From: a virus
IMG/VR virus record: IMGVR_UViG_3300045988_131126
Reading direction: 5' to 3' (one strand)
Length of the DNA stretch: 64,000 nt
Positions 22,151 to 64,000 of this stretch are shown piece by piece; positions within the stretch are counted from its first letter, which is position 1; every line of letters begins with the position of its first letter. The position numbers and the translations under genes were made by a program. The notes under the pieces are model-generated. The model saw only the letters and a list, made by a program, of their open reading frames with translations, ran no database searches and was not told the DNA's origin.

Positions 22151-22179
22151 GACTCTAATTCCTCCTTTTAATATTCAAT

Positions 22180-22191
22180 TAATAAATTGTT
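22180..22191 (-). promoter_or_regulatory. Late-type promoter word (aacaatttatta on the minus strand)
   Basis: 30 nt upstream of the protease ATG at 22150. It is divergent with the word at 22223-22234. Confidence 0.45.
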
Positions 22192-22222
22192 TCGGATCAT
22201 AGCCTATAAATGTACCAGGGTA

Positions 22223-22234
22223 AACAATATTATA
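22223..22234 (+). promoter_or_regulatory. Late-type promoter word (aacaatattata) with the upstream ATGTACCAGGGTA element
   Basis: 30 nt upstream of ATG 22264. Confidence 0.45.
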
Positions 22235-22263
22235 ATTATTGAACTAAATGGGAGGAATAAGGT

Positions 22264-24756
22264 ATGCATAGATATATCCCAATGCAAACGGTAGTATTCA
22301 GAAAACAATCTCTGACTGGTATGAATAATTTGGTATATATGAATGAAAGCAGATTTATCAATTATGCTTTCATTGAACCGAAGAAGAACAGTCCTTACAA
22401 AGCCAAAAAAGAATATCTAAATGCTTGCGATAATTCCAAATTTTTAAATGAAACTGGAAGTATATCAAAAGTTACAAAAGTAATTAATAGTATAATGGAA
22501 TCGGGAAGCAATAGTCAAAAAGAAGAAACTATGAGATATATAAATAATAACTTGATTCCAAAATTAAACAGAGATGCTACATCTATATTTGTAAATCAGA
22601 TTAATAAAAAGTTTTTGAACGAAAATTACACTAATAGTATTAATGATACTATTAGTATTTATAAAGAATGTGATCGTGTATTAAATAATGACAAGAAATT
22701 AGCAAAGAGATTTAATTTTGATAAATTTATTCAGGAGAATTACAATAGGAAAACTCCTAAAGAATTGGTCTTCTCTTTATGTGAAATGATAGATACATAT
22801 AATATCAGTCCAAAACAAAAATATTATATAGCTTTAGAGTCTGTACAATACGCTTTATATAATTCTCCAGTAAAAATGGATAATGTGGCTAAAGATATAA
22901 CTGATTATTTTTTATTGAGGGAATCAATTATACCGGATAGTATAATGTCTGGCTATATATCTTGTGCTAAAGATAACCAATTTTTAAGCCCAGAAGAATT
23001 ATCCAAATTAAAAATAATCAAAAATGATTATAGGGATTCGTATTTAACAAAGATAAATTATATTTCATCTACATTAGATAACGAAAGAGCAAGAAATATG
23101 CTCAATAGAATTCAAAATATTAGTACGGAGGAAGATGCTTCCCAGTATATAAAAGATGTATATAATTCTATTATGAATGACGTTACATTATCAGATTCGG
23201 ATAAAACAGAATTGGAGAATTCTATATATATGATACCATTAGTATCTGGTATAGATCAATTATTTATTGACTACGAGATTAAGAAAATAGATGGAGCACT
23301 ACTGGCAACAAGAGATTTAACTGAAACTGTAAACTATATAAACGAATATTTTGAGGATACTGGAATGGTAAGTGCTCCGAATATTCGTGATACTATAGAA
23401 AGTTTCAAATGCTCACAAGATAAGACACCGAAAAGATTTGCAAGATTAATCGGTAAGTTTAATATAAACAGCGAATATGCTATTGATGTACTTATAGAAT
23501 CTTTGCCTGAATTATATCTTATAATGAGATCTATATATGTAGCGGTATATTCTAATTCTGATTTAGAATATGTAATGCAAGAATATTTGTATTTATTCGA
23601 TAGAATTGACGAATATGCTGATCAGAAGCAATATGCCGATATATATAAAGCAATATCTAAAGAGATATCATGTGTTGATAAGATATTAAACGATGGAATA
23701 CCAGACCAAGAGATATCTGAAAGATATATAGAATATAAATCTACTCTCGATAAATCTTTACAAAAAATAGATAAATTGATGAGTACCCACCACGATATTT
23801 TATCGGAAAATACAAGTTTATTTAATGATATGAGTATAGAAGAATGTGAAAGTCTAATTACTACTTTAGCTAATGGAATGGATTCAGTAAATAGATTAAA
23901 TAAAGAAGAATTGCTATCATCTATATCCGATAATATAAGATTATTTACTATAAATTCTGATAATCTTAGAAATCTTTCTAATATATTGATGATAAGCAAA
24001 TGTGTAGATAAATCTGCCTATCAAAGTTGTTTGATTCAAAGAGCTTCTAATGATGATTGTACCAAAGCTGAAAATCTTATTATTGCAAATGAATTATCTT
24101 ATCTTAAAGATTATTGCTATCCAAAAGTAGACGAGATAACCGAATGTGTAATGATAATAGAATCAGTAAAATTATTAGAAGAATGCTTTTTTGAAGATAT
24201 AGTAAATGAAGCCACAGGAAAACCAATTGGTAAAAAGAAAAAGAAGAAATTGACATTTAATGACCTTCAGATAGCCATGAAAGCATTTGGAGCTAAATTA
24301 AGACAAATAAATACTAAAGCTGCGTCTATGTGGCAAAATATAGATGCTAAAGCAGCTAATATAACCAAAGGAATGCAGAGGGCGTTGACATCAGATAGAA
24401 GAGAAGCCATTATAAAAGGATCTATTATACCATCGATGTCTTCTTGCATTAAATCTATTATAGCTATATCTGGTACAACATTAGTCGGATCATTCTTTGG
24501 CGCACCATATGTAGGAATATTAACAGCTGTAGGTATATTTGCAGTTAATAAAAAATTAAACGATAGAGAGAGACTTTTAATTTATGATGAAATAGATACA
24601 GAGTTAAAAGTTGTAGATAAAGAAATAGAGATGGCACTTCAAGATGGGGATACTAAGAAGTATAGATTTCTATTAAATTATCAGAAAAAATTAAATAGGG
24701 AAAAAACTAGAATAAAATATCACACTACACCAATAGCCAGAAAGATTCCAGTATAA
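22264..24756 (+). CDS. Hypothetical large head-module protein with C-terminal TM segments
   Basis: ORF track. GGGAGG SD. AACA-N6-TA at 22223-22234. It lies between the protease and the acidic / major-capsid genes. Confidence 0.75.
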   Translation: MHRYIPMQTVVFRKQSLTGMNNLVYMNESRFINYAFIEPKKNSPYKAKKEYLNACDNSKFLNETGSISKVTKVINSIMESGSNSQKEETMRYINNNLIPKLNRDATSIFVNQINKKFLNENYTNSINDTISIYKECDRVLNNDKKLAKRFNFDKFIQENYNRKTPKELVFSLCEMIDTYNISPKQKYYIALESVQYALYNSPVKMDNVAKDITDYFLLRESIIPDSIMSGYISCAKDNQFLSPEELSKLKIIKNDYRDSYLTKINYISSTLDNERARNMLNRIQNISTEEDASQYIKDVYNSIMNDVTLSDSDKTELENSIYMIPLVSGIDQLFIDYEIKKIDGALLATRDLTETVNYINEYFEDTGMVSAPNIRDTIESFKCSQDKTPKRFARLIGKFNINSEYAIDVLIESLPELYLIMRSIYVAVYSNSDLEYVMQEYLYLFDRIDEYADQKQYADIYKAISKEISCVDKILNDGIPDQEISERYIEYKSTLDKSLQKIDKLMSTHHDILSENTSLFNDMSIEECESLITTLANGMDSVNRLNKEELLSSISDNIRLFTINSDNLRNLSNILMISKCVDKSAYQSCLIQRASNDDCTKAENLIIANELSYLKDYCYPKVDEITECVMIIESVKLLEECFFEDIVNEATGKPIGKKKKKKLTFNDLQIAMKAFGAKLRQINTKAASMWQNIDAKAANITKGMQRALTSDRREAIIKGSIIPSMSSCIKSIIAISGTTLVGSFFGAPYVGILTAVGIFAVNKKLNDRERLLIYDEIDTELKVVDKEIEMALQDGDTKKYRFLLNYQKKLNREKTRIKYHTTPIARKIPV

Positions 24757-43793: not shown

Positions 43794-43813
43794 GTATACT
43801 ATCATATTGAAAA
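43794..43813 (+). promoter_or_regulatory. Early-type promoter word, divergent copy (gtatactatcatattgaaaa)
   Basis: It occupies the same cassette position as the copies at 50791 and 58507. Confidence 0.4.
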
Positions 43814-43870
43814 AATAAATAATAATATAAATCATACTTATTTAAATAAGTGTGTAGAAAGAGGTATGAT

Positions 43871-44089
43871 ATGAGAAGAGATGAATTCATGAACGCGCAC
43901 GAAGTAAGAATGAGCGAGCTTGAAAAAGCTTGCGAGGATCTTAACGAGATTCTCGGCTCCGATCCTGTAGAAGGATTTGAAGATGATATCCTGGATCCTT
44001 CCCTAGAAAGCGAAAGAGGAATCCAGGATATCCAGACAAAGAATTCTCAAGATTTGGATGACTTATTGAAGGGTCTTGAGAATTTATAA
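43871..44089 (+). CDS. Hypothetical small acidic protein (72 aa) in an early cassette
   Basis: ORF-track frame 43850..44089. ATG 43871 follows the conserved TAGAAAGAGG block. Confidence 0.7.
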   Translation: MRRDEFMNAHEVRMSELEKACEDLNEILGSDPVEGFEDDILDPSLESERGIQDIQTKNSQDLDDLLKGLENL

Positions 44090-44098
44090 AAAATAAAT

Positions 44099-44124
44099 AA
44101 CGGATAAGTAAATGCTTATCCGTT
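44099..44124. terminator. Bidirectional hairpin
   Basis: aacggataag / cttatccgtt, between convergent genes. Confidence 0.55.
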
Positions 44125-44848
44125 ATTCTTTCCCAAAAGCTGATTTATTTTTTCTTGCTCCAGGTATCTGTCTTCCCTTAGATGCTTTTACTGGAGCACT
44201 CATAGCTTTTTCTGATTTTTGTTGATCTCTTTCAAAATCTGATAAATTAAATCCGTTCTCCGGTCTACCTAAATAATTTACCATATTTTGAGCATATCCA
44301 AACATATCTACTGTATCTATTAGATATTTAAATCCTAGAAATAGATCTGATATCATATCTACATATATAGATGGATCTGATATAGTTATTCTTACTCCTT
44401 GATTTTGGATATTATTCCATTCGATCACTACTGGATCGAACCATAAATATTTACCATCTGGTAATGACATTTTTAATGTATTTCTTCTTTTACAAGTTAA
44501 ATTACCATCTTTAACTTCAAAAGTATTATCTATCATCCATTTAGATGCCATACTTACTAATTCTCTTAATATAATAATATCTTGTATACGGATCATTACA
44601 CTTCGATCCCAATTGTCACCTCCTACGTCTATAGACATATAATACGAAAAACATCTTTTAATAGTTACTGCTACCTGAGTATCGTCATATTTCGATTCAT
44701 AACGATACTCACTGTGAAAAAACCTTCTACTATTATCTATACTTGAATTCTTTTTGGATAATAGTACATTAAATCGCAGATTAATATTATTCCCTAAATA
44801 CATCATATCATCTGTGATTTTATCATAATCTACGTATTCAACTTGCAT
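44123..44848 (-). CDS. Hypothetical protein (241 aa)
   Basis: ORF track. GGGAG SD. Confidence 0.7.
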   Translation of the reverse strand: MQVEYVDYDKITDDMMYLGNNINLRFNVLLSKKNSSIDNSRRFFHSEYRYESKYDDTQVAVTIKRCFSYYMSIDVGGDNWDRSVMIRIQDIIILRELVSMASKWMIDNTFEVKDGNLTCKRRNTLKMSLPDGKYLWFDPVVIEWNNIQNQGVRITISDPSIYVDMISDLFLGFKYLIDTVDMFGYAQNMVNYLGRPENGFNLSDFERDQQKSEKAMSAPVKASKGRQIPGARKNKSAFGKE

Positions 44849-50790: not shown

Positions 50791-50809
50791 TATAATATTA
50801 TAGTGATAA
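50791..50809 (+). promoter_or_regulatory. Early-type promoter word (tataatattatagtgataa)
   Basis: Inside the modular cassette 50726-50866. Confidence 0.55.
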
Positions 50810-50866
50810 TAATAAAAAATAATACATAAATCCTATATAATAAATATAGGTAGAAAGAGGAACAAT

Positions 50867-51130
50867 ATGAGAAGACTTGATACCATGAGAAACATTTTAA
50901 AGAAAGCTAAGACCAACGATCTAACAAAAATAAAATCGAAAGCGCTTACGCCGCTTATGTATGATAAAGATAAGCATACATTTTTACAACTCTCTCCATT
51001 GTGGGAGGGACATGGATGGAACTCAAAACTAATAGGTGTGAGAGTACCTCACACCTATTGGATTGGGGAAGTACTTGTAACAAAATATGAGGATTTTAAA
51101 TTAACACTTCCTCGGAGATACTATAGATAA
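50867..51130 (+). CDS. Hypothetical small protein (87 aa) in an early cassette
   Basis: ORF track. The conserved TAGAAAGAGG block lies 6 nt upstream. Confidence 0.7.
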   Translation: MRRLDTMRNILKKAKTNDLTKIKSKALTPLMYDKDKHTFLQLSPLWEGHGWNSKLIGVRVPHTYWIGEVLVTKYEDFKLTLPRRYYR

Positions 51131-51135
51131 ATTAT

Positions 51136-51169
51136 AAAGAGGTGTAAGGATTATACCTTACACCTCTTT
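51136..51169. terminator. Bidirectional hairpin
   Basis: aaagaggtgtaagg / ccttacacctcttt, between convergent genes. Confidence 0.7.
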
Positions 51170-51194
51170 ATACCCAAAACTATTTTATTTTTTA

Positions 51195-53315
51195 TTAAAT
51201 ACTCATTATATTACTATATGGAATATTGTTGTTTCCGTTAGTCTGAATATTTACAGACTTAAGCGGGAAATTACCAATATTATCATTTATAATAGTTGTA
51301 TAATCAATAAACTCTACAACCCATTTAGGTACTGCTACATCTAACGGTATTGCTAATGATGTAAATTCATTACCTTTACTTGTAGCTTTTCCTTTAAAAA
51401 TACTTGTATCCTTTAATACGTTCTTTATCTTTTCGTATGTTTCTGGATAAGTATCTTTTATTTTTTCTACAGTTTCTTCATTTACAACTACTTTTACAAT
51501 ATCCATACTATTTCTAGCTGTTAAGTCAAATCCTTCAAGACCATCATCTTTAATATCATTCCATATAACCGCAGCTTTTATACCTTGTATACCCATAGGA
51601 TCATCATAATGATCCATAGATTTTACATTTACCGGTTTATAGAATTCTTTTTCTCCATTATTAAGAGATCTAAATATCTTTTTATCTAATATCGCTAATC
51701 TCTTTATAATTCTAACTTGATCTATTACATCTGTATCAAGTATCTCTTCATATAATATCTTAGATAAAGCTGACTGTATAGATTTATTTAAGGTTACCTT
51801 TCTAATTTGTAAACCTTTAATATCCATACTTTCTTCTTCTGGTACTTTATGACCTTCCTGAAGTTCCTGTTTAGATGCATAGTTCTTCATACCTTCTGTT
51901 AATAATGCTCTTTTCATAAGAAACTCATTTTTCATATAGATAAGACATTTTCTATCTTCTCCATAAGAATGATTAGCTTTAGTATATTCTACCATATAAT
52001 CATTTACCAAAGCACCTACTATATAAGCCATAATATTAACCAATGAATATCTTAAATTATCAGAACCAGTTTGCTTATTAGGATTTACCAATCTTTTTCT
52101 AATTACAATATCATCATTAATGAAATCATAATCTTCATAATCTTCTTCAATAGGTTTAGTTTCTCCTAATACTGGATTATCTATTTCATTTAAGATTTTG
52201 AATTTGTGACCTTTACATTTCTCAAGACCAAATCTGAACCAAGCTTCAAGACTAATAATAGCACTATCTGTATCAGAGATACCAGCAATATTTTTAATCA
52301 TATTATCGCATCTATCAACTTTATCCATATATTGATATTTAAAATATACAAACTCTTTTAAGATATCTACTAAAGTATCTATCTCTACTTTGATTTCTTT
52401 TGGTGGCTCGTTTGGATCCATAAATGGTTGATCTAATTTTTCCAATAAAATTAATAATGCATTCGTCATTGATGCATTATCCATGAACTCGTAAAGGTTA
52501 TTTTTGTAATACAGTCTATTTATATCTTCTTGATCAAGTCTATTAATAATATCCCATATGATCTGTAAATCCATTTCATCAGGTAACCATTTTATTAATC
52601 CTTGCTTATAATCACCTATAGTAAGTACAATTTTATTGAAACATTCTTCTTTAGAAATATTACGATCTAATATATCGCAGTCTCTATATCTTCTTTCTTT
52701 TCTTTCACTTACTACACTATCAATAAACCATACAACTTCTTCAAGAGAAGCAAATTTAACGTTATTAGATAGAAAGCTTTCGAAAAACATAGTTGCTGTA
52801 CTAATGAGTTCTCTACCTGTTGTAGTAATGGATTCTGCTACAAAGATATTATAAAACATTGCTTGACATTGACCAAGTACACCGTATATTCCATTACAGT
52901 CAATTTTATCAAGTAATTGCAATAGATTATATTTCACAAACATTTCAGATCCTTTTGGATACTTAAACATTTCTGCTTTATGAACACCTCGCATTTCCAT
53001 AAATCCTCTAATCATTTCTATTAAAGGATTAGGAACTGTTCCATGTCTCATAAACATTACTCCAGATGGAGTACATATTGGTTGCTGAGATGCTATATAA
53101 TTTGTAAACTCTGATAATAACATCTCATGTTCTTTCTTATTGTAGTTATTGACTATTTTACATTTAGTATCAACAAATCTTTTCTTTACAGAATAATCAA
53201 TAGCATCTTTTATCTCTTGATTATTTAGGCTTGGATATATTAAAGACATTACTGTATGCATTTGCTGCATATATCTCATAACGCCAGCCGAATTATCTAC
53301 TGCTGAATTAACCAT
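51195..53315 (-). CDS. Family B DNA polymerase, polymerase (palm/fingers/thumb) part only
   Basis: MSLIYPS (motif A-like) at residues 23-29, KIDCNGIYGVLGQ (motif B, KxxxNSxYG), GISDTDSAI (motif C, DTDS). It has its own SD, AAAGGAAG. No exonuclease motifs are present. Confidence 0.75.
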   Translation of the reverse strand: MVNSAVDNSAGVMRYMQQMHTVMSLIYPSLNNQEIKDAIDYSVKKRFVDTKCKIVNNYNKKEHEMLLSEFTNYIASQQPICTPSGVMFMRHGTVPNPLIEMIRGFMEMRGVHKAEMFKYPKGSEMFVKYNLLQLLDKIDCNGIYGVLGQCQAMFYNIFVAESITTTGRELISTATMFFESFLSNNVKFASLEEVVWFIDSVVSERKERRYRDCDILDRNISKEECFNKIVLTIGDYKQGLIKWLPDEMDLQIIWDIINRLDQEDINRLYYKNNLYEFMDNASMTNALLILLEKLDQPFMDPNEPPKEIKVEIDTLVDILKEFVYFKYQYMDKVDRCDNMIKNIAGISDTDSAIISLEAWFRFGLEKCKGHKFKILNEIDNPVLGETKPIEEDYEDYDFINDDIVIRKRLVNPNKQTGSDNLRYSLVNIMAYIVGALVNDYMVEYTKANHSYGEDRKCLIYMKNEFLMKRALLTEGMKNYASKQELQEGHKVPEEESMDIKGLQIRKVTLNKSIQSALSKILYEEILDTDVIDQVRIIKRLAILDKKIFRSLNNGEKEFYKPVNVKSMDHYDDPMGIQGIKAAVIWNDIKDDGLEGFDLTARNSMDIVKVVVNEETVEKIKDTYPETYEKIKNVLKDTSIFKGKATSKGNEFTSLAIPLDVAVPKWVVEFIDYTTIINDNIGNFPLKSVNIQTNGNNNIPYSNIMSI

Positions 53316-54149: not shown

Positions 54150-56357
54150 ATGGACGAATTATTTAATGATCTTTTAAATCCGGAGCCATTTATATCAAAG
54201 ATTCAATCTCGATTTAATGAGATACAACCTTTGATAATTGATGATCTGACGCACTATGAAAATTATGGTGAATATGTACCGCTAGTTAATACTGGAGCGA
54301 TCAGTATTAACACTTCTAATTTGAGTAAAGAGAATATTGATTCTCATTTTACTTGGATTTATAATATCATTGCTGATGGCATTGAGCAGAAAAAAGTTCA
54401 TGATATGATAGTATATATTACATTTATGGATAATGTACAAATTAGATTATCTATATTTGATTATATGCTTAATCTTATTATGTGGAAACTACCTTTGCAA
54501 GCCGGAGATTCTTTAACAAGTAATTTCCTATTCTTTGATGATTGCATCACGCAGGATTCTATCAAAGATTATATTGATTTTAAATTCATTGATATTCACA
54601 GAAGAGATTTTAATAACTGTGATATGAATCAAATGATTGATGAGACAATATACAAATTTATGTATATTGATGACTTTGCTTATTATCTTATCAATACTAT
54701 CAATGAAAAAGATACTATTGATTTAATGAAGAAGTCCCAAGTAGCATGGGATACATTGCATTTTTCTACGGTACAATATCCGTTGGAAGACAAGAAAGAT
54801 GCTGCTATGGATATGACAAACAAATTAATTGCAGTAATAAAAGCACCTGATTCTGAGCATTGTTTAAGGGATTCGTTCAGAGCTAGAGAAGGTGTTAACC
54901 CAAAACAGTTCAGGGAAATGATTTGCAATATTGCAACTAAACCCGATGGTAATGGAAGTATCTTTAGTATCGACCTCGATACAAACTATATGCAAGAGGG
55001 TGTAGCAAAACCTGAATATTATACTATTGATAGTAGTGCAGCAAGACAAGCACAGATCTTAAATAAAGAGAATGTAGGACAATCTGGAGCATTTTCTAGA
55101 AAATTAAGATTAAATAATATGCACGCTAAAATTCATCCAAACCCAAAATACGTTTGTAATTCAAAAAGATTCTTGCCAATATTTATTAAAGATATGAAAG
55201 TATTAGTAAGATTCAAAAACAGATATTTCAGATTTAATCCAAAAGGAATGGAGTATAAAGTATCTCCACATCCAGAAAGAGATAATGTAAATCTTATAGG
55301 AAAGACTTTATATTTTAGATCTCCGGAAACATGTGCTTCACATGCTAGAGGAGAAGGGATTTGTTATAGATGCTATGGGGATTTGGCATATACGAATGCA
55401 GATATTAACCCAGGATGTATGGCATCAGAGTTATTGTCTTCTGTATTAACCCAGCGATTATTGTCTGCTAAGCACTTATTAGAGACAAATGTAAAAGCAT
55501 TAAACTGGGTTCCGGAATTCAAAGATATTTTTGCTGTAAACTGGAATATGATTATGATTATGGATGATTTCATTCCAAAGAAATGGAAACTTATTATATC
55601 ATCAGATGATATTTATCAGGAATCAGAATATGATGAGTTTGATTATAACTCATGCATAACTACTTTCAATGTAATGGATCCTGATGGAAATACCATTCTT
55701 ATCAAAACAGAGGATTTAGACAACTTATATATTTCTCCAGAGTTAAGAAAAGTAATGGATAATCAGAAACTTGTAGATGATCAGTATATAATCGATTTCT
55801 CTGATATTATGGGGATTCATTTATTTATGGTCAATATTACAAATAATGGATTATCTGCAACTCTTGAACGATGCAAAGCTACTCTTGATAAACAAGCTAT
55901 TATTAAAGAGTATAAAAATGATATCGGATTATTTACACAAGGATTTATCAATACTATTATTGAGGGTGGACTTGATACAGATGCAGTTCATTGTGAAGTA
56001 CTTATATCAAATCAGTTACGTAGAGTCACAGACGATTTAGGAGATTCTATGTTACAACCTGAGTGGGAATATCCAAATGAACCATACAAGATCGTAACTC
56101 TTGATACAGCGTTAAAAGAGAACCCAAGTATCACTACATCATTGAATTATCAGTATATACAGAAACAGTTATTCAAACCAATTACATTTAAGAAAAATAA
56201 ACCTGGTATGATGGATTTATTCTTTATGGAAAAACCACAAGAATATATGAATGTAGAATTGGATTATAACCCGAAATTCAAAGATGACGTTGATGATGCA
56301 ATTGATGGATTTATTAATCCTATTTATCACGTAGATGAAAATGGTAATAAATTATAA
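54150..56357 (+). CDS. RNA polymerase beta-prime subunit, C-terminal half (phage multisubunit RNAP)
   Basis: SAARQAQILNKENVGQSGAFSRKLRL (compare [27 protein letters not shown]). RSPETCASHARGEGICYRCYGDLAYTNADINPGCMASELLSSVLTQRLLSAKH (compare RSxxTCxxxxGVCxxCYGRDLAxGxxVxxGEAVGxIAAQSIGEPGTQLTMRTFH). Confidence 0.8.
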   Translation: MDELFNDLLNPEPFISKIQSRFNEIQPLIIDDLTHYENYGEYVPLVNTGAISINTSNLSKENIDSHFTWIYNIIADGIEQKKVHDMIVYITFMDNVQIRLSIFDYMLNLIMWKLPLQAGDSLTSNFLFFDDCITQDSIKDYIDFKFIDIHRRDFNNCDMNQMIDETIYKFMYIDDFAYYLINTINEKDTIDLMKKSQVAWDTLHFSTVQYPLEDKKDAAMDMTNKLIAVIKAPDSEHCLRDSFRAREGVNPKQFREMICNIATKPDGNGSIFSIDLDTNYMQEGVAKPEYYTIDSSAARQAQILNKENVGQSGAFSRKLRLNNMHAKIHPNPKYVCNSKRFLPIFIKDMKVLVRFKNRYFRFNPKGMEYKVSPHPERDNVNLIGKTLYFRSPETCASHARGEGICYRCYGDLAYTNADINPGCMASELLSSVLTQRLLSAKHLLETNVKALNWVPEFKDIFAVNWNMIMIMDDFIPKKWKLIISSDDIYQESEYDEFDYNSCITTFNVMDPDGNTILIKTEDLDNLYISPELRKVMDNQKLVDDQYIIDFSDIMGIHLFMVNITNNGLSATLERCKATLDKQAIIKEYKNDIGLFTQGFINTIIEGGLDTDAVHCEVLISNQLRRVTDDLGDSMLQPEWEYPNEPYKIVTLDTALKENPSITTSLNYQYIQKQLFKPITFKKNKPGMMDLFFMEKPQEYMNVELDYNPKFKDDVDDAIDGFINPIYHVDENGNKL

Positions 56358-56366
56358 TTAAATATT

Positions 56367-56395
56367 GTCTCACTAGTATATCATACTAGTGAGAC
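56367..56395 (+). terminator. Hairpin after the beta-prime C-terminal-half gene
   Basis: gtctcactagtat / atactagtgagac. Confidence 0.55.
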
Positions 56396-56422
56396 TTTAA
56401 TCTAGAAAGGAGAATTTAATTT

Positions 56423-57442
56423 ATGAGCAACGTATCTATGTTTTTATTTAATGATGATGAGGAAATGAAACCTAAACCATCAGAAATTAAACGTTTACAG
56501 GAAGGTAGTGTGAAATGTATTGAAAAGAAGAAAGAACCATATGTAGAAGGAATGATCTTCGTATTACAAATGGATAGAGAGATTGATAAAGATAAGCATT
56601 GCATTATATCTCCAGGAGGATATGAGTTTAAATCCAGTAAAAGTGAAAAATCTTTACAGTTTGATTTCTTTGACTATGCAGGATATATAGATTCAAATGA
56701 TAAGACAAAGATATTATTTGAAACTGAAGTATTAGACAGACAGTCTTTTCCAGGAACTATAGATAAATTAAATAAATCATTTTGTGAAGATATAAACGAA
56801 ATTACAGAATTTTATGTTTATACTGGAGAAGATGAAGATCCAGAACTAAACTTATCTAAAATTATAGACATAAGTTTATTATTTACAGATGGTACTAAAA
56901 TTGATATCAAAGAAGAAGTTATAAATAAATACAACGAAAAGATTACTAAAACTAAAGAAAAGAAGAAGATGCCGATGATTAATAGATTATCGAGCATGTC
57001 TTTAACATTAAAATTTAAAAATCTTCCAGATGATATTATGTATAAATCTTTAAGTGAAAGTAAATCTATAACTATATTTGACATAATACAATTATCATCA
57101 TCAAGATTAGGAAAATCTGCAAAGTTTGCATTCTGTGGAGAGGTGGAAAATCATTTCTTCGAGCATGACAAATCCATATTAATAGAAAAGCAGAATTATT
57201 TGGATAATAGTGCATTCTATGATGACATAGATATACTTACAGAAGATTTTATCAAATCGGTTGATGTAATAAATTATATATCCTTCGATGATGTATTATT
57301 AATGCCGAATCTTCCGATACAGTCTATTCTTACAATTAAATATGAATTCGAAAATGGCGATGAATACTACGCAAATGATTATGTAATAGACGAGTTCAAT
57401 AGAAGAATTAAAGAAAATATGAACTTAATCCATATTAATTAA
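56423..57442 (+). CDS. Hypothetical protein (339 aa)
   Basis: ORF track. AAAGGAG SD. Confidence 0.75.
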   Translation: MSNVSMFLFNDDEEMKPKPSEIKRLQEGSVKCIEKKKEPYVEGMIFVLQMDREIDKDKHCIISPGGYEFKSSKSEKSLQFDFFDYAGYIDSNDKTKILFETEVLDRQSFPGTIDKLNKSFCEDINEITEFYVYTGEDEDPELNLSKIIDISLLFTDGTKIDIKEEVINKYNEKITKTKEKKKMPMINRLSSMSLTLKFKNLPDDIMYKSLSESKSITIFDIIQLSSSRLGKSAKFAFCGEVENHFFEHDKSILIEKQNYLDNSAFYDDIDILTEDFIKSVDVINYISFDDVLLMPNLPIQSILTIKYEFENGDEYYANDYVIDEFNRRIKENMNLIHIN

Positions 57443-57461
57443 TAAAAGGAGAATGATTACA

Positions 57462-58106
57462 ATGAAAAGCAATGAAAATAAAGAAATTTGTAGCAAATGT
57501 AGAGGAATTTGTTGTAGAAACATGCCGGGACAATACGTCCCGGATGATCTCTTTGATCATGAAATGACGAAAGAAGAGTTGAAGAAATTTATATTAGAAG
57601 TTGGGAATATATCTATAGACTGCTGGGAGCCAGATGAAGAATCAGGTTACGAATCATATTATTATTTAAGACCAATGAGAAGAAAATTAACTCTTGAAGA
57701 AGCAAAGCAAAATGTAATAACGATAGACGAGAAGGATCCTGATAATTTATCATTAGAAGATAAAGAGAAAATAGCAGAAGTGTGGGCAAATATACTCAGT
57801 TATTCGATCAAGAATTTCAGAAATCAGGATCTTACGGTTGATTATGGATATAACGAAGTTGCACTAGTATGCTGTCATTTAACCGAAAATGGGTGTGATT
57901 TAAAGTTTGATAAAAGGCCTACCAATTGCAAAGAATTAATCCCAGCAAGAGATACGGAATGCTATATAGAAGGATTATCCGAAAATGATTCAGCGAAATT
58001 ATATTATGCTAAGAAATGGGAGAAATATAATGATATGCTGAATGATATAGCAAATGAAATTGAATTCGGAAAAGACTATAAAGAATATATTGGAGAGGAA
58101 GAATAA
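57462..58106 (+). CDS. YkgJ-type CxxCxxxCC zinc/iron-chelating domain protein
   Basis: CSKCRGICCRNMPG near the N-terminus and VCCHLTENGCDLKFDKRPTNCKEL later, as in the UPF0153/YkgJ family. I moved the start from 57453 to ATG 57462 for SD spacing. Confidence 0.55.
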   Translation: MKSNENKEICSKCRGICCRNMPGQYVPDDLFDHEMTKEELKKFILEVGNISIDCWEPDEESGYESYYYLRPMRRKLTLEEAKQNVITIDEKDPDNLSLEDKEKIAEVWANILSYSIKNFRNQDLTVDYGYNEVALVCCHLTENGCDLKFDKRPTNCKELIPARDTECYIEGLSENDSAKLYYAKKWEKYNDMLNDIANEIEFGKDYKEYIGEEE

Positions 58107-58107
58107 T

Positions 58108-58455
58108 ATGATACAGGTATTTCCTAAAGATGAAAATGTAAATATGAATCTAGAAGTTCCTACATTTGTAAATACTAGGAAAAATGATTACATATTATCT
58201 AAGAAATATACTAAAGAAAAGGAGGGTCTTACAATGAAAAGACTCAATAAGAAAATCGAAACTATAAACAATATTATTCTGGCAGTTGCCATTGCCGGAA
58301 TAATATTCTGGCTCCTTGGAGATGGCCTTTTTGGTCATCTCGGAGGACTTATAGTTACTATTATAGTAACTATAAGCATTTCCTTATTGACAGTAAGGAA
58401 ACTTCAATTGAAGAATAAGAAACTTCAATTGAAGTTAATGAAAGCAAGACGATAA
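58108..58455 (+). CDS. Small membrane protein with two TM helices and a basic tail (holin-like topology; function unproven)
   Basis: ORF-track frame 58054..58455. ATG 58108 follows GGAGAGG. The internal ATG 58234 has a very strong AAGGAGGG SD. TM segments IILAVAIAGIIFWLL and LGGLIVTIIVTISISLL. Confidence 0.6.
   Translation: MIQVFPKDENVNMNLEVPTFVNTRKNDYILSKKYTKEKEGLTMKRLNKKIETINNIILAVAIAGIIFWLLGDGLFGHLGGLIVTIIVTISISLLTVRKLQLKNKKLQLKLMKARR
58398..58434. repeat. Two copies of GAAACTTCAATTGAAG, each containing the 12-bp palindrome CTTCAATTGAAG, 21 bp centre to centre
   Basis: Copies at 58398-58413 and 58419-58434, inside the 3' end of the membrane-protein gene. Confidence 0.9.
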
Positions 58456-58472
58456 GTCTTGCTTTCTTTTTT
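58441..58472 (+). terminator. Intrinsic terminator; first module of an early cassette
   Basis: aaagcaagac / gtcttgcttt followed by cttttttt. Confidence 0.75.
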
Positions 58473-58506
58473 CTACGATACTCGTAAAATCGTTTTTTTT
58501 TGAGTG

Positions 58507-58525
58507 TATATTATTATAGTGATAA
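58507..58525 (+). promoter_or_regulatory. Early-type promoter word (tatattattatagtgataa)
   Basis: Inside the modular cassette 58441-58574. Confidence 0.55.
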
Positions 58526-58574
58526 ATAATAATAAATCCTACTTTTAAAATAAGTAGGTAGAAAGAGGTATAAT

Positions 58575-58802
58575 ATGTGGAATTTATTTGGCATAGATGA
58601 TTTTTTAACAGACCAATTTTCTGAGGAGGCTTCTGCATTATTAGAAGACCCTCAGGAAGGGGATTTAGAAAAACTAAAAGATATTTTTAAGAAATATTCC
58701 TGCAACGCTATGTGGTGGGAGATAAAACCGGTGTATGACCGGTATTATTCTGAGATTGAATATAAGCTCAGAAAAATAAAAAATAAATTAGAAGAAAGCT
58801 AG
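58575..58802 (+). CDS. Hypothetical small protein (75 aa) in an early cassette
   Basis: ORF track. The conserved TAGAAAGAGG block lies upstream. Confidence 0.7.
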   Translation: MWNLFGIDDFLTDQFSEEASALLEDPQEGDLEKLKDIFKKYSCNAMWWEIKPVYDRYYSEIEYKLRKIKNKLEES

Positions 58803-58820
58803 TAATGCTAGCTTTCTTCT
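58790..58820 (+). terminator. Hairpin after 58575-58802
   Basis: agaagaaagctag / ctagctttcttct. Confidence 0.6.
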
Positions 58821-58854
58821 AATTATACTAATTTACGTATACTCTTTATTTTTT
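58818..58854 (+). repeat. 37-bp direct repeat, copy 1 (tctaattatacTaatttacGtatactctttatttttt)
   Basis: Matches 59090-59126 with 2 mismatches. Confidence 0.9.
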
Positions 58855-58904
58855 CTACGATACTATGGCAAAATTGTATTTGTAATATCTTTATTTTTTA
58901 ATTA

Positions 58905-58923
58905 TATATTATTATAGTGATAA
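58905..58923 (+). promoter_or_regulatory. Early-type promoter word (tatattattatagtgataa), identical to 58507-58525, with no ORF downstream
   Basis: Inside the ORF-less cassette upstream of the terminase gene. Confidence 0.5.
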
Positions 58924-59089
58924 GAATAGAAAATCTATATCTTATCCGGTAGTATGTCCGAAACATACATAAAAGGAAAGAGCACTTCATAGTGCTCATT
59001 ATATTACTTTACTTTATTAAGGCGGGCTTAGGTTGCGATCTTTTTGGTCGTAACCTAGGCTCAAAATCAAATAATAATATTTTATTTTT
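58924..59089 (+). ncRNA. Candidate structured non-coding RNA downstream of an orphan early promoter
   Basis: There is no SD-preceded ORF. Hairpin gagcact-tcat-agtgctc lies at 58980-58997. A 15-bp stem at 59026-59040 / 59046-59060 has three G-U pairs that form only in the plus-strand transcript. Confidence 0.35.
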
Positions 59090-59126
59090 TCTAATTATAC
59101 CAATTTACATATACTCTTTATTTTTT
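59090..59126 (+). repeat. 37-bp direct repeat, copy 2
   Basis: Matches 58818-58854 with 2 mismatches. Confidence 0.9.
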
Positions 59127-59132
59127 GTCTAA

Positions 59133-59144
59133 AACAACACTGTA
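59133..59144 (+). promoter_or_regulatory. Late-type promoter word (aacaacactgta) upstream of the terminase gene
   Basis: 26 nt upstream of TTG 59170. Confidence 0.4.
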
Positions 59145-59169
59145 ATATTGATTGAGGAGATGATGTAAA

Positions 59170-61386
59170 TTGGTAATACCTGCTGAGAAACAACAAGTAC
59201 AACCTATTACTATATATTATCAGACATCTACTACTAATCAAAGTTTCATGGATATGCATTTTCAATTAAAACAACAAGGACGTGTTAATAATAGATTTTT
59301 CCTTGCATTATACGATAGAGACTTGATAGGAGTAGATCCAAGGGATCCTAGACTTCCACAATATATGAAAGCTAAAGTGCTTAATGAATGTGCACATAAC
59401 TATTGGTATTTTATTAGAGAAGTAATACGTATTCCAGATCAAGGTGGTGCTGCTAACTCTGGTGTAAGGTACAAATTACATAGAGGAAACTTAGCATTAT
59501 CTTTTTGCTTATTAAATAACTGGAATATTTTTTTGGAATTACCTCGTCAGCATGGTAAAACCATGGCTGCGTTATGTTGGTATTTATGGGTATTTAACTT
59601 TAGAACTACCAACTCAGAAATTATGTTTATGAATAAGAAACATGATGACTCTAAAATGAACTTACAGAGATTAAAGATACTTAGAGCTGCTCTTCCTACA
59701 TATTTACAATTTGCAAATCAATATGGTAAAGATGGTACAAAATTAAGAGCATCTAATACATTAGAGACAATTACTCATATTATAAATAATAACAAGATTA
59801 CTACTAAACCTAGTGCTAGAAGTAAGACTATAGCTAATAACCTTGGTCGTGGTTGTACTATGCCTATGCATTGGTATGACGAGTATGCATTTATTGTATA
59901 CAATAAGATCATATATCAAGCTGCTACTCCTGCATACAAGACAGCATCAGAAAATGCTAAAAAGAACCATGCACCATATGGTATTCTTATAACAACAACA
60001 CCTGGCGATTTAAGTACCGATGAAGGAATGGATGCTTATGAAACAAGAAACTCTGCTACGCCATTCCTGGAAGAATTCTATGATTATACTCCACAGCAAT
60101 TAAAAGAAGTTGCTGAAGCTAATACGGATTCTTCTTTCTTTTATATAAGATTTACTTATCAACAATTAGGTTCTTCCGAACAGTACTTCAAAGAAATGGT
60201 TCGAGATCTTAAGAAAGATTGGGCTGCTATCAGACGTGAAGTTTTACTTGAGTGGTCTCTTACATCTGATAATTCTCCATTTGATCCTAATGACCTTGAG
60301 CTTATTGCTACTATGGTAAGAGAACCTATTAGAAGAATAGTATTAAGAAAAGGATTCGCTATTGATCTTTATAAACAAATAGAAGATCCTCATTATCCTC
60401 CTATTATAGGTGTCGACGTTTCTGGTGGTTATAGTAGGGACTCTTCTGCTGTAACTATTATAGATAGCAAGACTACAGATGTGGTAGGAGACTTTAACTG
60501 TAACTATATATCTACTAATGATTTGGCTCATTTACTGTATGAATTAGTAGTTAAGTTTATGCCTAATGCTATAGTAAATGTAGAGCGAAATGGTGGTTTT
60601 GGTGCTTCTGTATTATCAACACTAAAAGAAACCAAAATAAAACGTAATCTATATTATGAAATCAAAGATAGAATATTCGAGGAACGAACGTTTGGTGGAA
60701 TGAATCAAACTATAAAACATACTCAGAAATGTAAAGTATACGGATTCGATGAAACAAAGAATAGTCGAGATCTGTTAATGCAGATATTAAGAGAAAGGGT
60801 AGATAACCATAAATCTAAATTCTTATCTCCTAAGATATTAGCAGAATTACGTACATTGGAATATAAGAAGAATGGTAGAATTGAGCATACTGCTCAAGGA
60901 CACGATGACCAGATATTCTCTTATCTAATGGCTATGTATGTATGGTATGAAGGAAAAGAACTTACTGAAAGATATGGTTTACAGAAAGTAACTATACATA
61001 CGGATGAAGATGATGAAGATAGAATTGATATTGATAATAACTATACAGATATATCTGAAGCTATTAATGAAGAATCTGATATGGTTCAAGAGCAATTAGA
61101 TGTACTATCTTCTAATAAAGCTATACTATATGATGAATGGAGAGCGCAAGAAAAAGCTAAAGACCAAGAAGCTGTAAATAGGTTATTACAGACTAAAGTT
61201 GGTCAGCAAGCTTATATCGAAAAATATCATATAGATCCAGATGATCTTCCGATATTAGGGCAAGCCTATTCTATTCCACAGGATGTATTTGATGATTATT
61301 ATGATGATTTTCAAGTAGATCCATTAACTAAACAAAAGTTAGTAGAAGAAGAAAGATTAAGTAAAATATATAGTATGAAATATTAA
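59170..61386 (+). CDS. terL: Terminase large subunit, T4 gp17-like
   Basis: LPRQHGKTMAA (compare gp17 SRQLGKT, Walker A), MHWYDEYAF (Walker B, DE), ILITTTPGD (coupling motif). Nuclease part: IGVDVSGGYSRDSSAV, NVERNGGFG, GHDDQIFS. TTG start after GAGGAG, so the start is uncertain. Confidence 0.85.
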   Translation: MVIPAEKQQVQPITIYYQTSTTNQSFMDMHFQLKQQGRVNNRFFLALYDRDLIGVDPRDPRLPQYMKAKVLNECAHNYWYFIREVIRIPDQGGAANSGVRYKLHRGNLALSFCLLNNWNIFLELPRQHGKTMAALCWYLWVFNFRTTNSEIMFMNKKHDDSKMNLQRLKILRAALPTYLQFANQYGKDGTKLRASNTLETITHIINNNKITTKPSARSKTIANNLGRGCTMPMHWYDEYAFIVYNKIIYQAATPAYKTASENAKKNHAPYGILITTTPGDLSTDEGMDAYETRNSATPFLEEFYDYTPQQLKEVAEANTDSSFFYIRFTYQQLGSSEQYFKEMVRDLKKDWAAIRREVLLEWSLTSDNSPFDPNDLELIATMVREPIRRIVLRKGFAIDLYKQIEDPHYPPIIGVDVSGGYSRDSSAVTIIDSKTTDVVGDFNCNYISTNDLAHLLYELVVKFMPNAIVNVERNGGFGASVLSTLKETKIKRNLYYEIKDRIFEERTFGGMNQTIKHTQKCKVYGFDETKNSRDLLMQILRERVDNHKSKFLSPKILAELRTLEYKKNGRIEHTAQGHDDQIFSYLMAMYVWYEGKELTERYGLQKVTIHTDEDDEDRIDIDNNYTDISEAINEESDMVQEQLDVLSSNKAILYDEWRAQEKAKDQEAVNRLLQTKVGQQAYIEKYHIDPDDLPILGQAYSIPQDVFDDYYDDFQVDPLTKQKLVEEERLSKIYSMKY

Positions 61387-61390
61387 AATA

Positions 61391-61420
61391 TACCCCATAG
61401 ATATTAATATCTATGGGGTA
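61391..61420 (+). terminator. Hairpin after the terminase gene
   Basis: taccccatagata / tatctatggggta. Confidence 0.6.
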
Positions 61421-61478
61421 ATTATTTATGGATAATTAAACCATATTATAATTTAAAATAGATAAGGAGAGAAAATCT

Positions 61479-62243
61479 ATGGGAAGTAAAATAGGGTTAT
61501 GCACCATTTATAAAAGCGATAGCGGTTATAATAGAGAAACCGCAACTTGGTATACAAGTTCCGAACCGAAATTTGTATTATTCGAGCTATTACTAAATAA
61601 TTATTGTGCAATAATGGTAGAAGATAAAAAAACATTAGAAAAACCGATCAACTATACTTATCGATTATTAACAGTAGAACACGCCGAATTATATAAACTT
61701 GCAATCTCAGCAGCCTCTGATATACATGGTATATTGAAATATAATGGGTATTTTAAAAAAGAAGCTGAAGATGCAAAAATGAATGGAATATCTAATGGAG
61801 ATAAAAGAAAAATGATGAATGAAATATGGAAAGAACTTGATATTGTAAATGTCAATTCTTCTATATATGATTTAGCAGTCGATCAAAAAGTATCTATACT
61901 TGCAAAAGGTGAATCTGGTATGCATTTATATTTGTACAATAGCGCTATTAAAGATATTTTAAATTCTGATTTCTGCGCAAAAATAGCCGGAATATATAGT
62001 GAAACATATGACTTGGGATATATTTCTGATATTGATGATTTGAAAAAAGAATTGGGCCAGTATGCCAAAGAAGTATTATGTCCCATAGACGATTATATAA
62101 GAGTAATATCATCTTCAATAGATCAAATCAAAGACGCTTTAAATGAAGATAATAAAAAAGAATTTTTAGAGAAAGTAAAATTAATTATGAATTTACCTGA
62201 AAACTTTTTGGAGGAATATAAAGATGGCGTTCAAGAGCAATAG
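61479..62243 (+). CDS. Hypothetical protein (254 aa)
   Basis: ORF track. AAGGAGAG SD. Confidence 0.75.
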   Translation: MGSKIGLCTIYKSDSGYNRETATWYTSSEPKFVLFELLLNNYCAIMVEDKKTLEKPINYTYRLLTVEHAELYKLAISAASDIHGILKYNGYFKKEAEDAKMNGISNGDKRKMMNEIWKELDIVNVNSSIYDLAVDQKVSILAKGESGMHLYLYNSAIKDILNSDFCAKIAGIYSETYDLGYISDIDDLKKELGQYAKEVLCPIDDYIRVISSSIDQIKDALNEDNKKEFLEKVKLIMNLPENFLEEYKDGVQEQ

Positions 62244-62997
62244 TAACGATTACACAATTATTACAGAAGGAGAATTAGGTGCTGTATTACAGAACTTTGA
62301 TCCTGATATGGTATTCTCTGTATTAGAGAATAATCTTGAAAATAAATACAGAGAATATGAATTAAATTTAACTAATTTGGTTACTTCATACGAATATCAG
62401 TTTAAAGAATTAGCTGATCAGTATGGACAAGATAATCAGATATTTGTAACTAGAGATCAGACATATGGAATTATCATAGAAAGAATATGTAGATTCCATG
62501 ATTTAGATATGCCTATCACTACAGATAATGTAGATATTTATACGTTAGCTTCTATAATGTATGAATTCTTTGTATCAAGTTTCACTAAATATATATCAAG
62601 ATTTTTTATCTCTTATATTTATAGGGAGAAAGATTCTATATATAAAATGATTCTTAGTTTTGATGAGGATAAAAAAGTTAAAAATAACAGTATAACTTAT
62701 GCTAAAAAGATATACGACAACGATCCTCAATTAGCAGCTATTCATGCATATATACCTAAGGTTGTAGAAAGTATATGCCAATTTCCTATTACATTACACG
62801 AATACATATCTGGTGTATATAAAACAGAGCCTCAGAAAGCTGATTTTTTAAGATCGGTATTACCCGACAATGAATATTTTTATTCTAATTTTGTAGTACC
62901 GTTTATTAATAACCACAGTAGTAGAATCATTATGGATATTAGATTTGCATTACAATCTGATGTATGTCCTACTTTAAGTTTTCCACAAAATCAATAG
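62224..62997 (+). CDS. Hypothetical protein (257 aa)
   Basis: ORF track. GGAGGA SD. 20-nt overlap with the upstream gene. Confidence 0.75.
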   Translation: MAFKSNSNDYTIITEGELGAVLQNFDPDMVFSVLENNLENKYREYELNLTNLVTSYEYQFKELADQYGQDNQIFVTRDQTYGIIIERICRFHDLDMPITTDNVDIYTLASIMYEFFVSSFTKYISRFFISYIYREKDSIYKMILSFDEDKKVKNNSITYAKKIYDNDPQLAAIHAYIPKVVESICQFPITLHEYISGVYKTEPQKADFLRSVLPDNEYFYSNFVVPFINNHSSRIIMDIRFALQSDVCPTLSFPQNQ

Positions 62998-63009
62998 AGG
63001 TGATATTTT

Positions 63010-63219
63010 ATGAAGAAAAATGAGTTGGTCGTATACAGACCACCCGAATATTATTTGAATTACTCTAAAACTACTAATATTAGTCTTATTTGTAATTCAA
63101 ATCGAATGGAAAATGTAGTATTACCAATATTAACTCTTTATAATTTACTACAAAGACTACGAGGTGGAACAAATGAACAAACGACAGAAAAAGAAACTGA
63201 AGAAAAGACATACACCTAA
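63010..63219 (+). CDS. Hypothetical small protein (69 aa)
   Basis: ORF track. AGAGGTGA SD. Confidence 0.55.
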   Translation: MKKNELVVYRPPEYYLNYSKTTNISLICNSNRMENVVLPILTLYNLLQRLRGGTNEQTTEKETEEKTYT

Positions 63220-63436
63220 TATAATCACAGAATTTAGAGATACAACTCGAATAGAAGGGGCTTCTTTACCAGATGAAATATTACAAGAAATATCAGATAG
63301 TATTAAAAAGATTATGGGTACATTCAAACCAATTTCATTTAAAGATATACCATATATAGTACCTGTTATTCTAGATGAGGATACCAAAATTGAAGTATAC
63401 GATATAATTATTCAGGAGGATAATAAAAATGAATAA
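63173..63436 (+). CDS. Hypothetical small protein with a basic N-terminus
   Basis: ORF-track frame 63164..63436. ATG 63173 follows GAGGTGG. It overlaps the preceding ORF by about 47 nt. Confidence 0.55.
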   Translation: MNKRQKKKLKKRHTPNIITEFRDTTRIEGASLPDEILQEISDSIKKIMGTFKPISFKDIPYIVPVILDEDTKIEVYDIIIQEDNKNE

Positions 63437-64000
63437 CGAGAATTTAAAAACAGTATTAACAGATGAGCAAGTAGATCAAATTGCAGAGAAATTAGAAGAA
63501 AGTAGATCAGAAGATAATAGAAAGATTGAAAATCTTCCTTCTAATAAAGATACTAATGAAAGAGTACCAGAAGATCCAAATGCTTATGAATCAGAAACAG
63601 TAACAGCCTATGTAGATCCTATGACAGGAGAAAAGAAACCGGTTCCTACAGAGATCGAACCATTGACTAATATTGATTTAGATACTTCTGGATTTGATAA
63701 TTTATTAAATATGAGTGACGATGAAATCAGAAACTTAGAGATATCCGATGAGGAACTTAAAGAATCTTTACCAGTAAAAGCATCTAAAGAAGATTTCGTT
63801 ACTTTCAGAAAAGTATTCGATAGATATAGAAAAGGAGAAGACTTCTCTGTATATAATGCATTACCACCATCATTTAAGAGATTCGTAGATGAAAGCATTG
63901 CATCTATTTCTATGGAGAGTCTATCCAAAGCACAGATTAAAGATGTAAGATCAGTTATTACTAAATCCATCTTTGATGAGATTATCCAAGATACTTATCA
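63429..64000 (+). CDS. Partial CDS (N-terminal 190 aa; continues past the window end)
   Basis: Hand translation from ATG 63429 (CAGGAGGA SD) is stop-free to the window end: MNNENLKTVLTDEQVDQIAEKLEESRSEDNRKIENLPSNKD... Confidence 0.65.
   Translation, partial: MNNENLKTVLTDEQVDQIAEKLEESRSEDNRKIENLPSNKDTNERVPEDPNAYESETVTAYVDPMTGEKKPVPTEIEPLTNIDLDTSGFDNLLNMSDDEIRNLEISDEELKESLPVKASKEDFVTFRKVFDRYRKGEDFSVYNALPPSFKRFVDESIASISMESLSKAQIKDVRSVITKSIFDEIIQDTY

Follow-up and report, generated by a model that had tools for sequence, protein, structure and literature searches.

Introduction

In T4-type phages, small genes are shuffled as promoter-early stem-loop (PeSL) cassettes. Composite motifs of an early promoter and a stem-loop terminator recur around small ORFan genes of a hyperplastic region, and close relatives are distinguished by insertions, deletions and replacements that break within these motifs (Arbiol et al. 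2010, PMC2839356; Comeau et al. 2014, PMC4122927). The terminators of these cassettes have been proposed to prevent early expression from running on into late virion genes downstream. Here, we describe a related arrangement in a 64,000-nucleotide stretch of viral DNA, the IMG/VR record IMGVR_UViG_3300045988_131126 (hereafter the window; positions count from its first letter, and the features of the gap described below all lie on the plus strand). The gap at 58,803-59,169 precedes terL, the gene for the large terminase subunit (59170..61386, 738 aa, TTG start). It contains an early cassette without a conserved open reading frame (ORF), which we call cassette N (58900-59090), and a repeat that directly follows it. 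In our reading, to which we give a probability of roughly 0.6, the gap is an RNA-only early cassette stacked on a constant leader that occludes the start of terL.

Three further systems bear on this locus. In the T4 genes e (lysozyme), soc, 49 and I-TevI, occlusion of the translation start region is combined with an internal late promoter (PMC3014915). Within the long early transcripts of these genes, the Shine-Dalgarno (SD) sequence and the start codon are sequestered by pairing to a segment upstream, and the late promoter is placed so that late transcripts lose the 5' strand of the helix and are translatable. The jumbo phages 201phi2-1 and phiKZ produce small RNAs that appear in ONT-cappable-seq as a start site followed by a close terminator (PMC11512511). 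In phage AR9, the early promoter consensus is AAATATATATTAT-N6-G(+1) and the late consensus is AACA-N6-TA/G, whose last base is the +1; genes of AR9 that carry an early promoter as well as a late one show continuous expression, and some AR9 late promoters are antisense (Lavysh et al. 2017, PMC5312081).

The locus studied here shares features with each of these systems. Like in PeSL cassettes, repeated early-promoter and terminator motifs flank small ORFan genes, and close relatives differ by cassette gain, loss and replacement inside the motifs. Unlike in PeSL cassettes, the promoter follows the AT-rich AR9-type consensus of a virion RNA polymerase and not sigma-70, the modules carry words of their own (CTACRATAC and TTTATTTTTT), and one cargo, N, appears to be RNA only. 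The start of terL is predicted to be paired with an upstream segment around a late promoter as in T4 gene e, but here the gene is terL, the late promoter AACA-N6-TA is that of a phage multisubunit RNA polymerase, and the computationally predicted helix is long-range, of 13 + 7 bp over a 52-nt loop. Like the 201phi2-1 and phiKZ small RNAs, N is a short non-coding unit (<250 nt) from a jumbo phage that has RNA polymerases of its own. However, those RNAs were detected experimentally and one of them is conserved in position upstream of a tail gene across genera, whereas N is predicted only, varies between strains and has no sequence or Rfam similarity to them. Like AR9, the locus has an early and a late promoter before one gene, in words that agree with the AR9 consensus, although the phage to which it belongs is a separate, uncultured one from the gut that shares no nucleotide similarity with AR9. 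Our verdict is a PeSL-like cassette system that runs on virion RNA polymerase promoters and includes an RNA-only cargo, together with a T4-like occluding terL leader.

Judged from its sequence, the window is part of an AR9/PBS1-like jumbo phage of human-gut metagenomes. Its TerL is 35-39% identical to those of the Bacillus phages PBS1, AR9 and BpSp and to Staphylococcus jumbo phage terminases, and a gene at 54150-56357 codes for a 735-aa protein that falls in the beta family of phage multisubunit RNA polymerases by its match. The ENA contig L046 (273,686 bp) is identical to the window. Relatives were collected by TerL-anchored and neighbour-gene-anchored searches, which gave ~19 strain-level contigs and 38 more distant ones (given L numbers below) from human-gut assemblies, Hadza samples included. 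The gap itself has no nucleotide match among 50,697 phage records.

Results

Predicted promoter, terminator and hairpins of cassette N

Cassette N opens with a promoter of the AR9 early (virion RNA polymerase) type, AATTATATATTAT-N6-G, at 58900..58919, with the predicted +1 at G58919. The full word, AATTATATATTAT-TATAGT-G, agrees with 12 of the 13 AR9 early consensus positions and has the G. It is a perfect copy, identical in all five N variants and better than the promoters of the coding cassettes. An earlier reading of the gap from its letters alone (the sequence-only reading) had pointed out that the promoter word at 58905-58923 is identical to a copy at 58507, as we also find; a further copy at 50791 has one mismatch. 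In its degenerate form, the early motif has 16 matches in the window against 5.6 expected, and sigma-70-like sites are at chance level (9 against 9.5 expected).

The predicted 3' end follows from a terminator pattern that recurs in the window. The tail TTTATTTTTT occurs 27 times against 2.7 expected, and ~13 of the 27 copies lie 26-64 nt past a co-oriented stop codon, behind a strong hairpin. In cassette N, a long hairpin, H3, is followed after 18 nt by such a tail at 59081-59090, which fits the hairpin-then-tail pattern, so that the predicted RNA would span G58919 to ~59090 (58919..59090, ~170 nt, without a conserved ORF). H3 is most simply modeled as the terminator hairpin of cassette N, and the tail is part of its T-tract AATATTTTATTTTTT (59076..59090). 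With a predicted promoter-to-terminator distance of <250 nt and no conserved ORF, N has the layout of the known phage small RNAs. The tail, in many copies with a G after it, is used as a terminator tail across the clade: it also follows the terminator hairpin that precedes terL in L003, L004, L014, L019, L021, L030 and L035, at 45-65% TerL identity.

The predicted transcript has four hairpins. H0 (58919..58946, 12 bp) starts exactly at the predicted +1 and is, like H1 (58952..58968, 6 bp), invariant in the five variants. Next comes a purine-rich, SD-like tract, AAAGGAAAGAG (58972..58982), which is variable between strains and looks like a remnant of the translation start region of the cassette family. 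H2 (58980..58997, 7 bp) has invariant stems, a loop that differs in L087, and a GTG (58992) inside it. A U-rich linker (58998..59023) with the bulk of the interstrain substitutions and indels leads to H3 (59024..59062), a 17-bp hairpin (59024-59040 / 59046-59062) with four G-U pairs, invariant stems and a loop of U4 or U5. The seven elements that the sequence-only reading had listed in the gap are all present at their positions and non-random. Its two short hairpins stand as described, but its long stem has 17 bp and not 15, a fourth G-U pair, G59025-U59061, joins the three that it had named, and H0 had escaped it.

Folding, conservation and coding capacity

The plus-strand RNA 58919-59092 folds with -56.7 kcal/mol (z = -9.1, 0/200 shuffles). 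That the structure is specific to the plus strand, as had been suggested, is borne out: the 172-nt segment 58919-59090 reaches -55.7 kcal/mol on the plus strand and -38.9 kcal/mol on the minus strand, whose fold is 17 kcal/mol weaker because of the G-U pairs. When folding energies are corrected for GC content, the plus strand of this segment ranks in the top 0.4% of 2970 windows across the 64 kb.

Conservation of the stems in relatives had been named as a check, and it was found. Among the five variants, 0/84 stem columns of H0-H3 vary, compared with 25/94 columns of loops, linkers and tail (Fisher 2e-8). Counted as independent substitution events, of which there are at least ~12, all fall outside the stems (event-based p ~5e-4). 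The N of L087 is 91% identical, while the adjacent protein there is 72% identical. At the level of sequence, this difference between stems and linkers speaks in favour of selection acting on the hairpins.

The sequence-only reading had called the cassette ORF-less and had named one competing product, a GTG-initiated hydrophobic ORF of 46 codons (58992-59132). This ORF exists, but no variant other than the window has it open throughout. A nonsense change and frameshifts bring in a stop at codon 10 (L001 and L080), codon 14 (L088) or codon 15 (L087), which leaves lengths of 46, 9, 9, 13 and 14 residues in the five variants. Since the ORF is intact only in the window, we regard N as non-coding, a promoter and a terminator around RNA alone. 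No gene is called at N in any public assembly, and BLASTP of the 46-aa ORF against the neighbouring 133-aa protein gave nothing. The element AAAGGAAAGAG-N9-GTG stands in N at the position where the coding sister cassettes have TAGAAAGAGG-N6-ATG, and on this comparison a coding cassette is the probable ancestor of N; a search of all collected loci with N, by blastn and tblastx, found no parent ORF.

Further copies of N were sought in several ways. Exact H1, H2 and H3 words in IMG/VR, and the H3 word in GTDB genomes, gave L051, which is the L001 contig, as the sole real match. The others are chance matches, one of which, 19 nt long and to H1, falls in a coding sequence of unrelated phages. A covariance model of N run over 551 kb of related loci found no additional copy, and a 27-bit match in L024 was rejected for having no H3. 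Against Rfam, cmscan of 56000-64000 at E <= 10 returned chance-level miRNA and snoRNA matches only, and pRNA was not matched. No tRNA or tmRNA was found.

Cassette exchange upstream of terL

In the close strains, the slot between the 115/133-aa membrane-protein gene and terL is hypervariable. The comparison of terL-proximal regions that the sequence-only reading had proposed finds N present in some strains and absent in others, within eight slot alleles: A+N (the window, L046), N only (L001, L080, L088), D+N (L087), A only and frameshifted (L085), A+B (L002, L086, L084), D only (L081, L089), C (L064, L093) and an empty allele (L097, L098). N is missing from ~14 of the 19 strain alleles, all of which have a near-identical terL, and it is optional even between phages whose TerL is identical. 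All other cargoes (A, B, C and D) code for ORFan proteins, 70-122 aa in length; searches of Pfam and PHROG with A, B, C and the 87-aa ORF of the cassette at 50.8 kb gave no match. In L085 (1321-1759), cassette A has lost one T from an early-ORF T-run, is frameshifted and has no gene called, as expected of a cassette in decay.

Cassettes with their own promoter share one layout, CTACRATAC, a T-rich element, the early promoter, the cargo and a terminator hairpin with the TTTATTTTTT tail, and every cassette is followed by one copy of a 36-38-nt repeat. Four such cassettes lie in the window, at 43.8, 50.8, 58.5 and 58.9 kb. The one before N is cassette A, with a 75-aa ORF (58575-58802) and a terminator hairpin with a perfect 17-bp stem (58786..58824). 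It carries at its 3' end the first copy of the direct repeat (58817..58854), which terminates in the T-tract CTCTTTATTTTTT. There follows CTACGATAC (58855..58863), the junction word that opens each early cassette module, which is also found at 19607, 50757 and 58473, every time directly 3' of a terminator hairpin and T-run. Between this word and the N promoter lies the promoter-upstream element GTAATATCTTTATTTTTT (58882..58899; further copies at 43772 and 50768). A portion of it, AATATCTTTATTTTTT, is the left copy of a short repeat at which N is gained or lost, and AATATTTTATTTTTT is the right copy that bounds the N indel.

The alleles show where the exchange occurs. L001 differs from the window by recombination between repeated promoter modules, with the junction in 58449-58538 / 58844-58934. 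The empty allele retains the characteristic upstream spacer of N together with a single hybrid AATATCTTTTATTTTTT, and the N unit (58900-59090) is thus bounded by a T-tract repeat of 15-16 nt. N occurs in three cassette contexts, with an adjacent protein that is 72-100% identical across those backgrounds, and in stacked pairs it is always the terL-proximal member. On the evidence of these alleles, N is one optional cargo, and cargo is swapped by recombination at the repeated promoter and terminator modules.

The direct repeat that brackets N, first described as 37 bp, is real: the copies at 58817-58854 and 59089-59126 agree over 38 nt with 2 mismatches (0/100 shuffles) and extend to 55 nt at 84% identity. 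The sequence-only reading took the repeats as a sign that the segment arose by duplication or insertion. Insertion and stacking are supported by presence/absence breakpoints in the repeated modules, but the repeat is not the target duplication of a mobile insert: every strain has it as the constant leader of terL, regardless of the upstream sequence. The first copy is present because two cassettes, A before N, are stacked.

A constant terL leader that probably occludes the translation start

In every strain, the last repeat copy directly precedes the late promoter of terL, irrespective of the cassettes upstream. We therefore regard repeat copy 2 (59089..59126) as the native terL leader. It is followed by two overlapping AR9-type late promoter words, AACA-N6-TA (59133..59147), with the predicted +1 at A59144 or A59147. 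The word at 59133-59144 had been noticed in the sequence-only reading, and 59136-59147 is a second one; both match the AR9 late consensus exactly, 23-26 nt upstream of the terL start.

Repeat copy 2 contains two arms that are complementary to the terL translation start region (59153..59175). The anti-start arm, 59098-59110, is perfectly complementary over 13 bp to 59163-59175, which includes the TTG at 59170, and the anti-SD arm, 59114-59120, pairs over 7 bp with the SD sequence UGAGGAG (59153-59159). The resulting occluding helix of 13 + 7 bp encloses a 52-nt loop (z = -3.9), and both motif-predicted late +1 candidates (59144 and 59147) lie inside this loop. Inside terL, the palindromic AACAAGGACGTGTT at 59273-59286 contains late-promoter-like words on both strands, of which the minus-strand one would drive RNA antisense to the 5' end of terL.

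Opening of 59152-59175 costs 19.7-20.1 kcal/mol in long upstream transcripts, compared with 8.8-8.9 kcal/mol in the late mRNA. The cost in the long transcript is the highest among 35 genes tested, and the difference of ~11 kcal/mol lies 4.5 standard deviations above 25 other genes (1.3 +/- 2.2, maximum 7.0). All occluding pairs are kept in the five N-bearing strains, with G-U exchanges only, and L064 keeps the helix too. In ten distant relatives with a co-oriented upstream gene, the leaders are unalignable; the mean difference there is 6.5 kcal/mol, with 8/10 above 5, and pairings such as CACATCC/GGATGTG (L005) and CCTTTCC/GGAAAGG (L004) are found. According to this modeling, the repeat leader probably keeps terL from being translated too early. 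The sequence-only reading had considered a structured leader that controls terminase expression. Such a leader seems to exist, but the element is repeat copy 2 and not the three hairpins. Occlusion by the leader would also explain why cassettes with early promoters can enter upstream of terL without deregulating it.

Strong mutual burying of start regions in long transcripts is also seen at 22150-22264, in a divergent pair of genes with late promoters, with differences of 10.1 and 7.5 kcal/mol; there it is probably a by-product of two facing SD sequences.

Hairpins in the early region around cassette N

The neighbourhood of N is rich in hairpins. In the ORF of the 133-aa membrane protein (58054-58455), the 3' half (58270-58470) consists of five consecutive near-perfect hairpins and a terminator, and folds with -98.4 kcal/mol (z = -14.8). 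In 13 distinct strain sequences, 91% of cells pair, compared with 33-49% in slid controls. In addition, compensatory double changes are seen at 17 pairs, and several of the G-U pairs never vary (0/500 shuffles on all measures). The compensatory pairs and the pairing statistics together indicate a conserved plus-strand RNA hairpin array within a conserved coding sequence.

Most of the top-ranked folding windows of the 64 kb lie at 58.2-59.1 kb. The coding cassettes at 43805-44135, 50805-51195 and 58521-58856 are over-structured as well (z = -6.7, -8.4 and -7.0), with perfect hairpins inside their ORFs, for example at 51027-51055. The sister cassettes share a leader (43833-43873, 50827-50869 and 58535-58577) composed of AAATC, a hairpin and TAGAAAGAGG-N6-ATG. 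The stems of this hairpin differ and nevertheless pair: CCTAC/GTAGG, CCTATAT/ATATAGG and CATACTTAT/ATAAGTGTG, and CCTACG/CGTAGG in cassette B of L002. A 12-nt word, CTTTTTGGTCGT, is common to the loop and 3' arm of H3 in N (59040-59051) and to hairpin 2 of the 133-aa gene in L002-type (L002 4905-4916) and L064-type strains; the copy in the window shares 10 nt (58327-58336). This shared word could be remote homology or a common loop motif.

Other features of the window and its relatives

A second variable slot lies in the same operon. The 339-aa gene (56423-57442) between an RNA polymerase subunit and a 217-aa gene is replaced in L080, L081 and L086 (329-1865) by three genes of 178, 150 and 150 aa. 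The terL gene itself differs in the clade: terL matches span 2.4-3.3 kb for a ~2.2-kb gene in L014-L019, L021, L026-L028 and L030-L038, and PBS1 and AR9 have a split terL with a homing endonuclease annotated between the pieces. These long and split matches indicate that introns or inserts interrupt terL in much of the clade and that the gene is intact here. GC skew along the window tracks gene orientation, with no origin-like switch at 58-59 kb.

Discussion

We propose that cassette N is a self-contained, protein-less member of a mobile family of early-expression cassettes. Transcription by the injected virion RNA polymerase would begin at G58919 and end near 59090, past H3 and the T-tract. 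It would yield an RNA of ~170 nt that has a hairpin at the extreme 5' end and a terminator at the 3' end, as stable small RNAs usually do. N would be gained, lost or stacked by homologous recombination between the repeated promoter and terminator modules, in a slot between the early operon and terL. In this model, N is most likely an accessory small early RNA. In RNA that reads through from the cassettes, 59098-59110 would pair with the start-codon region of terL and 59114-59120 with its SD sequence, and translation would be blocked. Since the late promoter lies between the arms, the late mRNA would be without the 5' arms and would be translatable. More tentatively, and with a low probability, N may be a true accessory RNA gene, horizontally shuffled in the slot that also takes ORFan proteins and highly expressed early, whose RNA might act as a decoy, sponge or anti-defence RNA. 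It may also be the protein-free extreme of a tendency, found throughout the lineage, to build early transcripts as arrays of conserved hairpins.

Several observations pull the other way. The five variants of N show no compensatory covariation; the stems never vary, which leaves no room for the compensatory changes that would prove the pairing itself. The coding sister cassettes are as hairpin-dense as N, which means that structure alone does not mark a non-coding RNA. N keeps an SD-like tract and a GTG at the start position of the family and could be a cassette in decay. H3 is no textbook intrinsic terminator, because 18 nt separate it from the T-tract. When the single-stranded segments of N were compared with 61 translation start regions of the 64 kb, no pairing survived multiple testing. 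For the leader, the helix is weaker in other strains (opening cost 15.4 kcal/mol in L001, 14.1 in L064 and 11.2 in L002), and L002-type strains have one central C-A mismatch in the helix. In addition, only 4/10 of the distant relatives beat shuffles in a simple duplex test (p < 0.025), and controls with a divergent gene are also partly occluded, with a mean of 4.6.

The main rival of the small-RNA reading is a dead cassette, which we consider unlikely but serious: N would be a former coding cassette that lost its ORF and became neutral DNA, with the terminator hairpin alone kept to shield terL. The retained start-region layout of the family, the different truncation of the ORF after the GTG between strains, the visible decay of cassette A in L085 and the existence of an empty allele would all fit such a history. 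However, neutral decay does not predict that the stems of H0, H1 and H2, which are not part of the terminator, stay invariant at 50/50 positions while loops and linkers vary. Nor does it predict a consensus promoter that is perfect in 5/5 variants and better than that of the coding cassettes, or the occurrence of N in three contexts with neighbour proteins that are 72-100% identical.

We consider it improbable that N is a long structured 5' leader of terL, in which read-through from the N promoter is tuned by the hairpins for early or middle expression of the terminase. Continuous expression of AR9 genes with an early and a late promoter (PMC5312081) gives this arrangement a precedent, termination may leak at H3, which has no adjacent U-run, and N always takes the terL-proximal place in stacked pairs. 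On the other hand, read-through RNA buries the terL start region, which then takes ~20 kcal/mol to open, and two T-tracts stand between H3 and terL. In addition, terL does not need N, which most strains lack.

It is very improbable that N encodes a tiny hydrophobic peptide, either from the GTG ORF (MLIIL...) or from a 12-codon ATG ORF at 58954, acting at the membrane or as the leader peptide of an attenuator. An SD-like tract does lie 9-10 nt upstream of the GTG, codons 1-5 are conserved, and the 46-codon ORF of the window crosses repeat copy 2, such that its translation could open the terL start region. Yet the length and C-terminus of this ORF differ among the five variants, which is not the pattern of a leader-peptide attenuator, its GTG is buried in H2, the 12-codon ORF is without an SD sequence and frameshifted in L087, and neither a called gene nor a Pfam match was found.

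A packaging element was a further suggestion of the sequence-only reading, with a link to pac or cos sites in mind; such an element, whether a pac-like DNA site or an RNA like the phi29 pRNA (~174 nt), has nothing in its favour except the position directly upstream of terL and the approximate size, and it is effectively refuted by the presence/absence pattern of N in these sequences, as N is absent from most strains with near-identical terL, the empty allele included, and from all 38 distant relatives, which have only 36-190 nt upstream of terL, while the Rfam search gave no match and the G-U pairs point to RNA rather than duplex DNA.

In T4, genes are shuffled at promoter-terminator cassettes, and late genes are kept silent by a late promoter placed inside an occluding helix. 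Our reading of cassette N and the terL leader extends these two principles to uncultured AR9-like jumbo phages of the human gut, which use their own RNA polymerases. It also offers a concrete small-RNA candidate with predicted ends and with natural strains that have or lack it. If N is a true accessory RNA gene, it would be the first RNA-only cargo to be described in any system of promoter-terminator cassettes, as well as in any phage dependent on a virion RNA polymerase. The hairpin arrays in early coding sequences may reflect a general strategy at the RNA level, providing stability or protection from host nucleases and defences.

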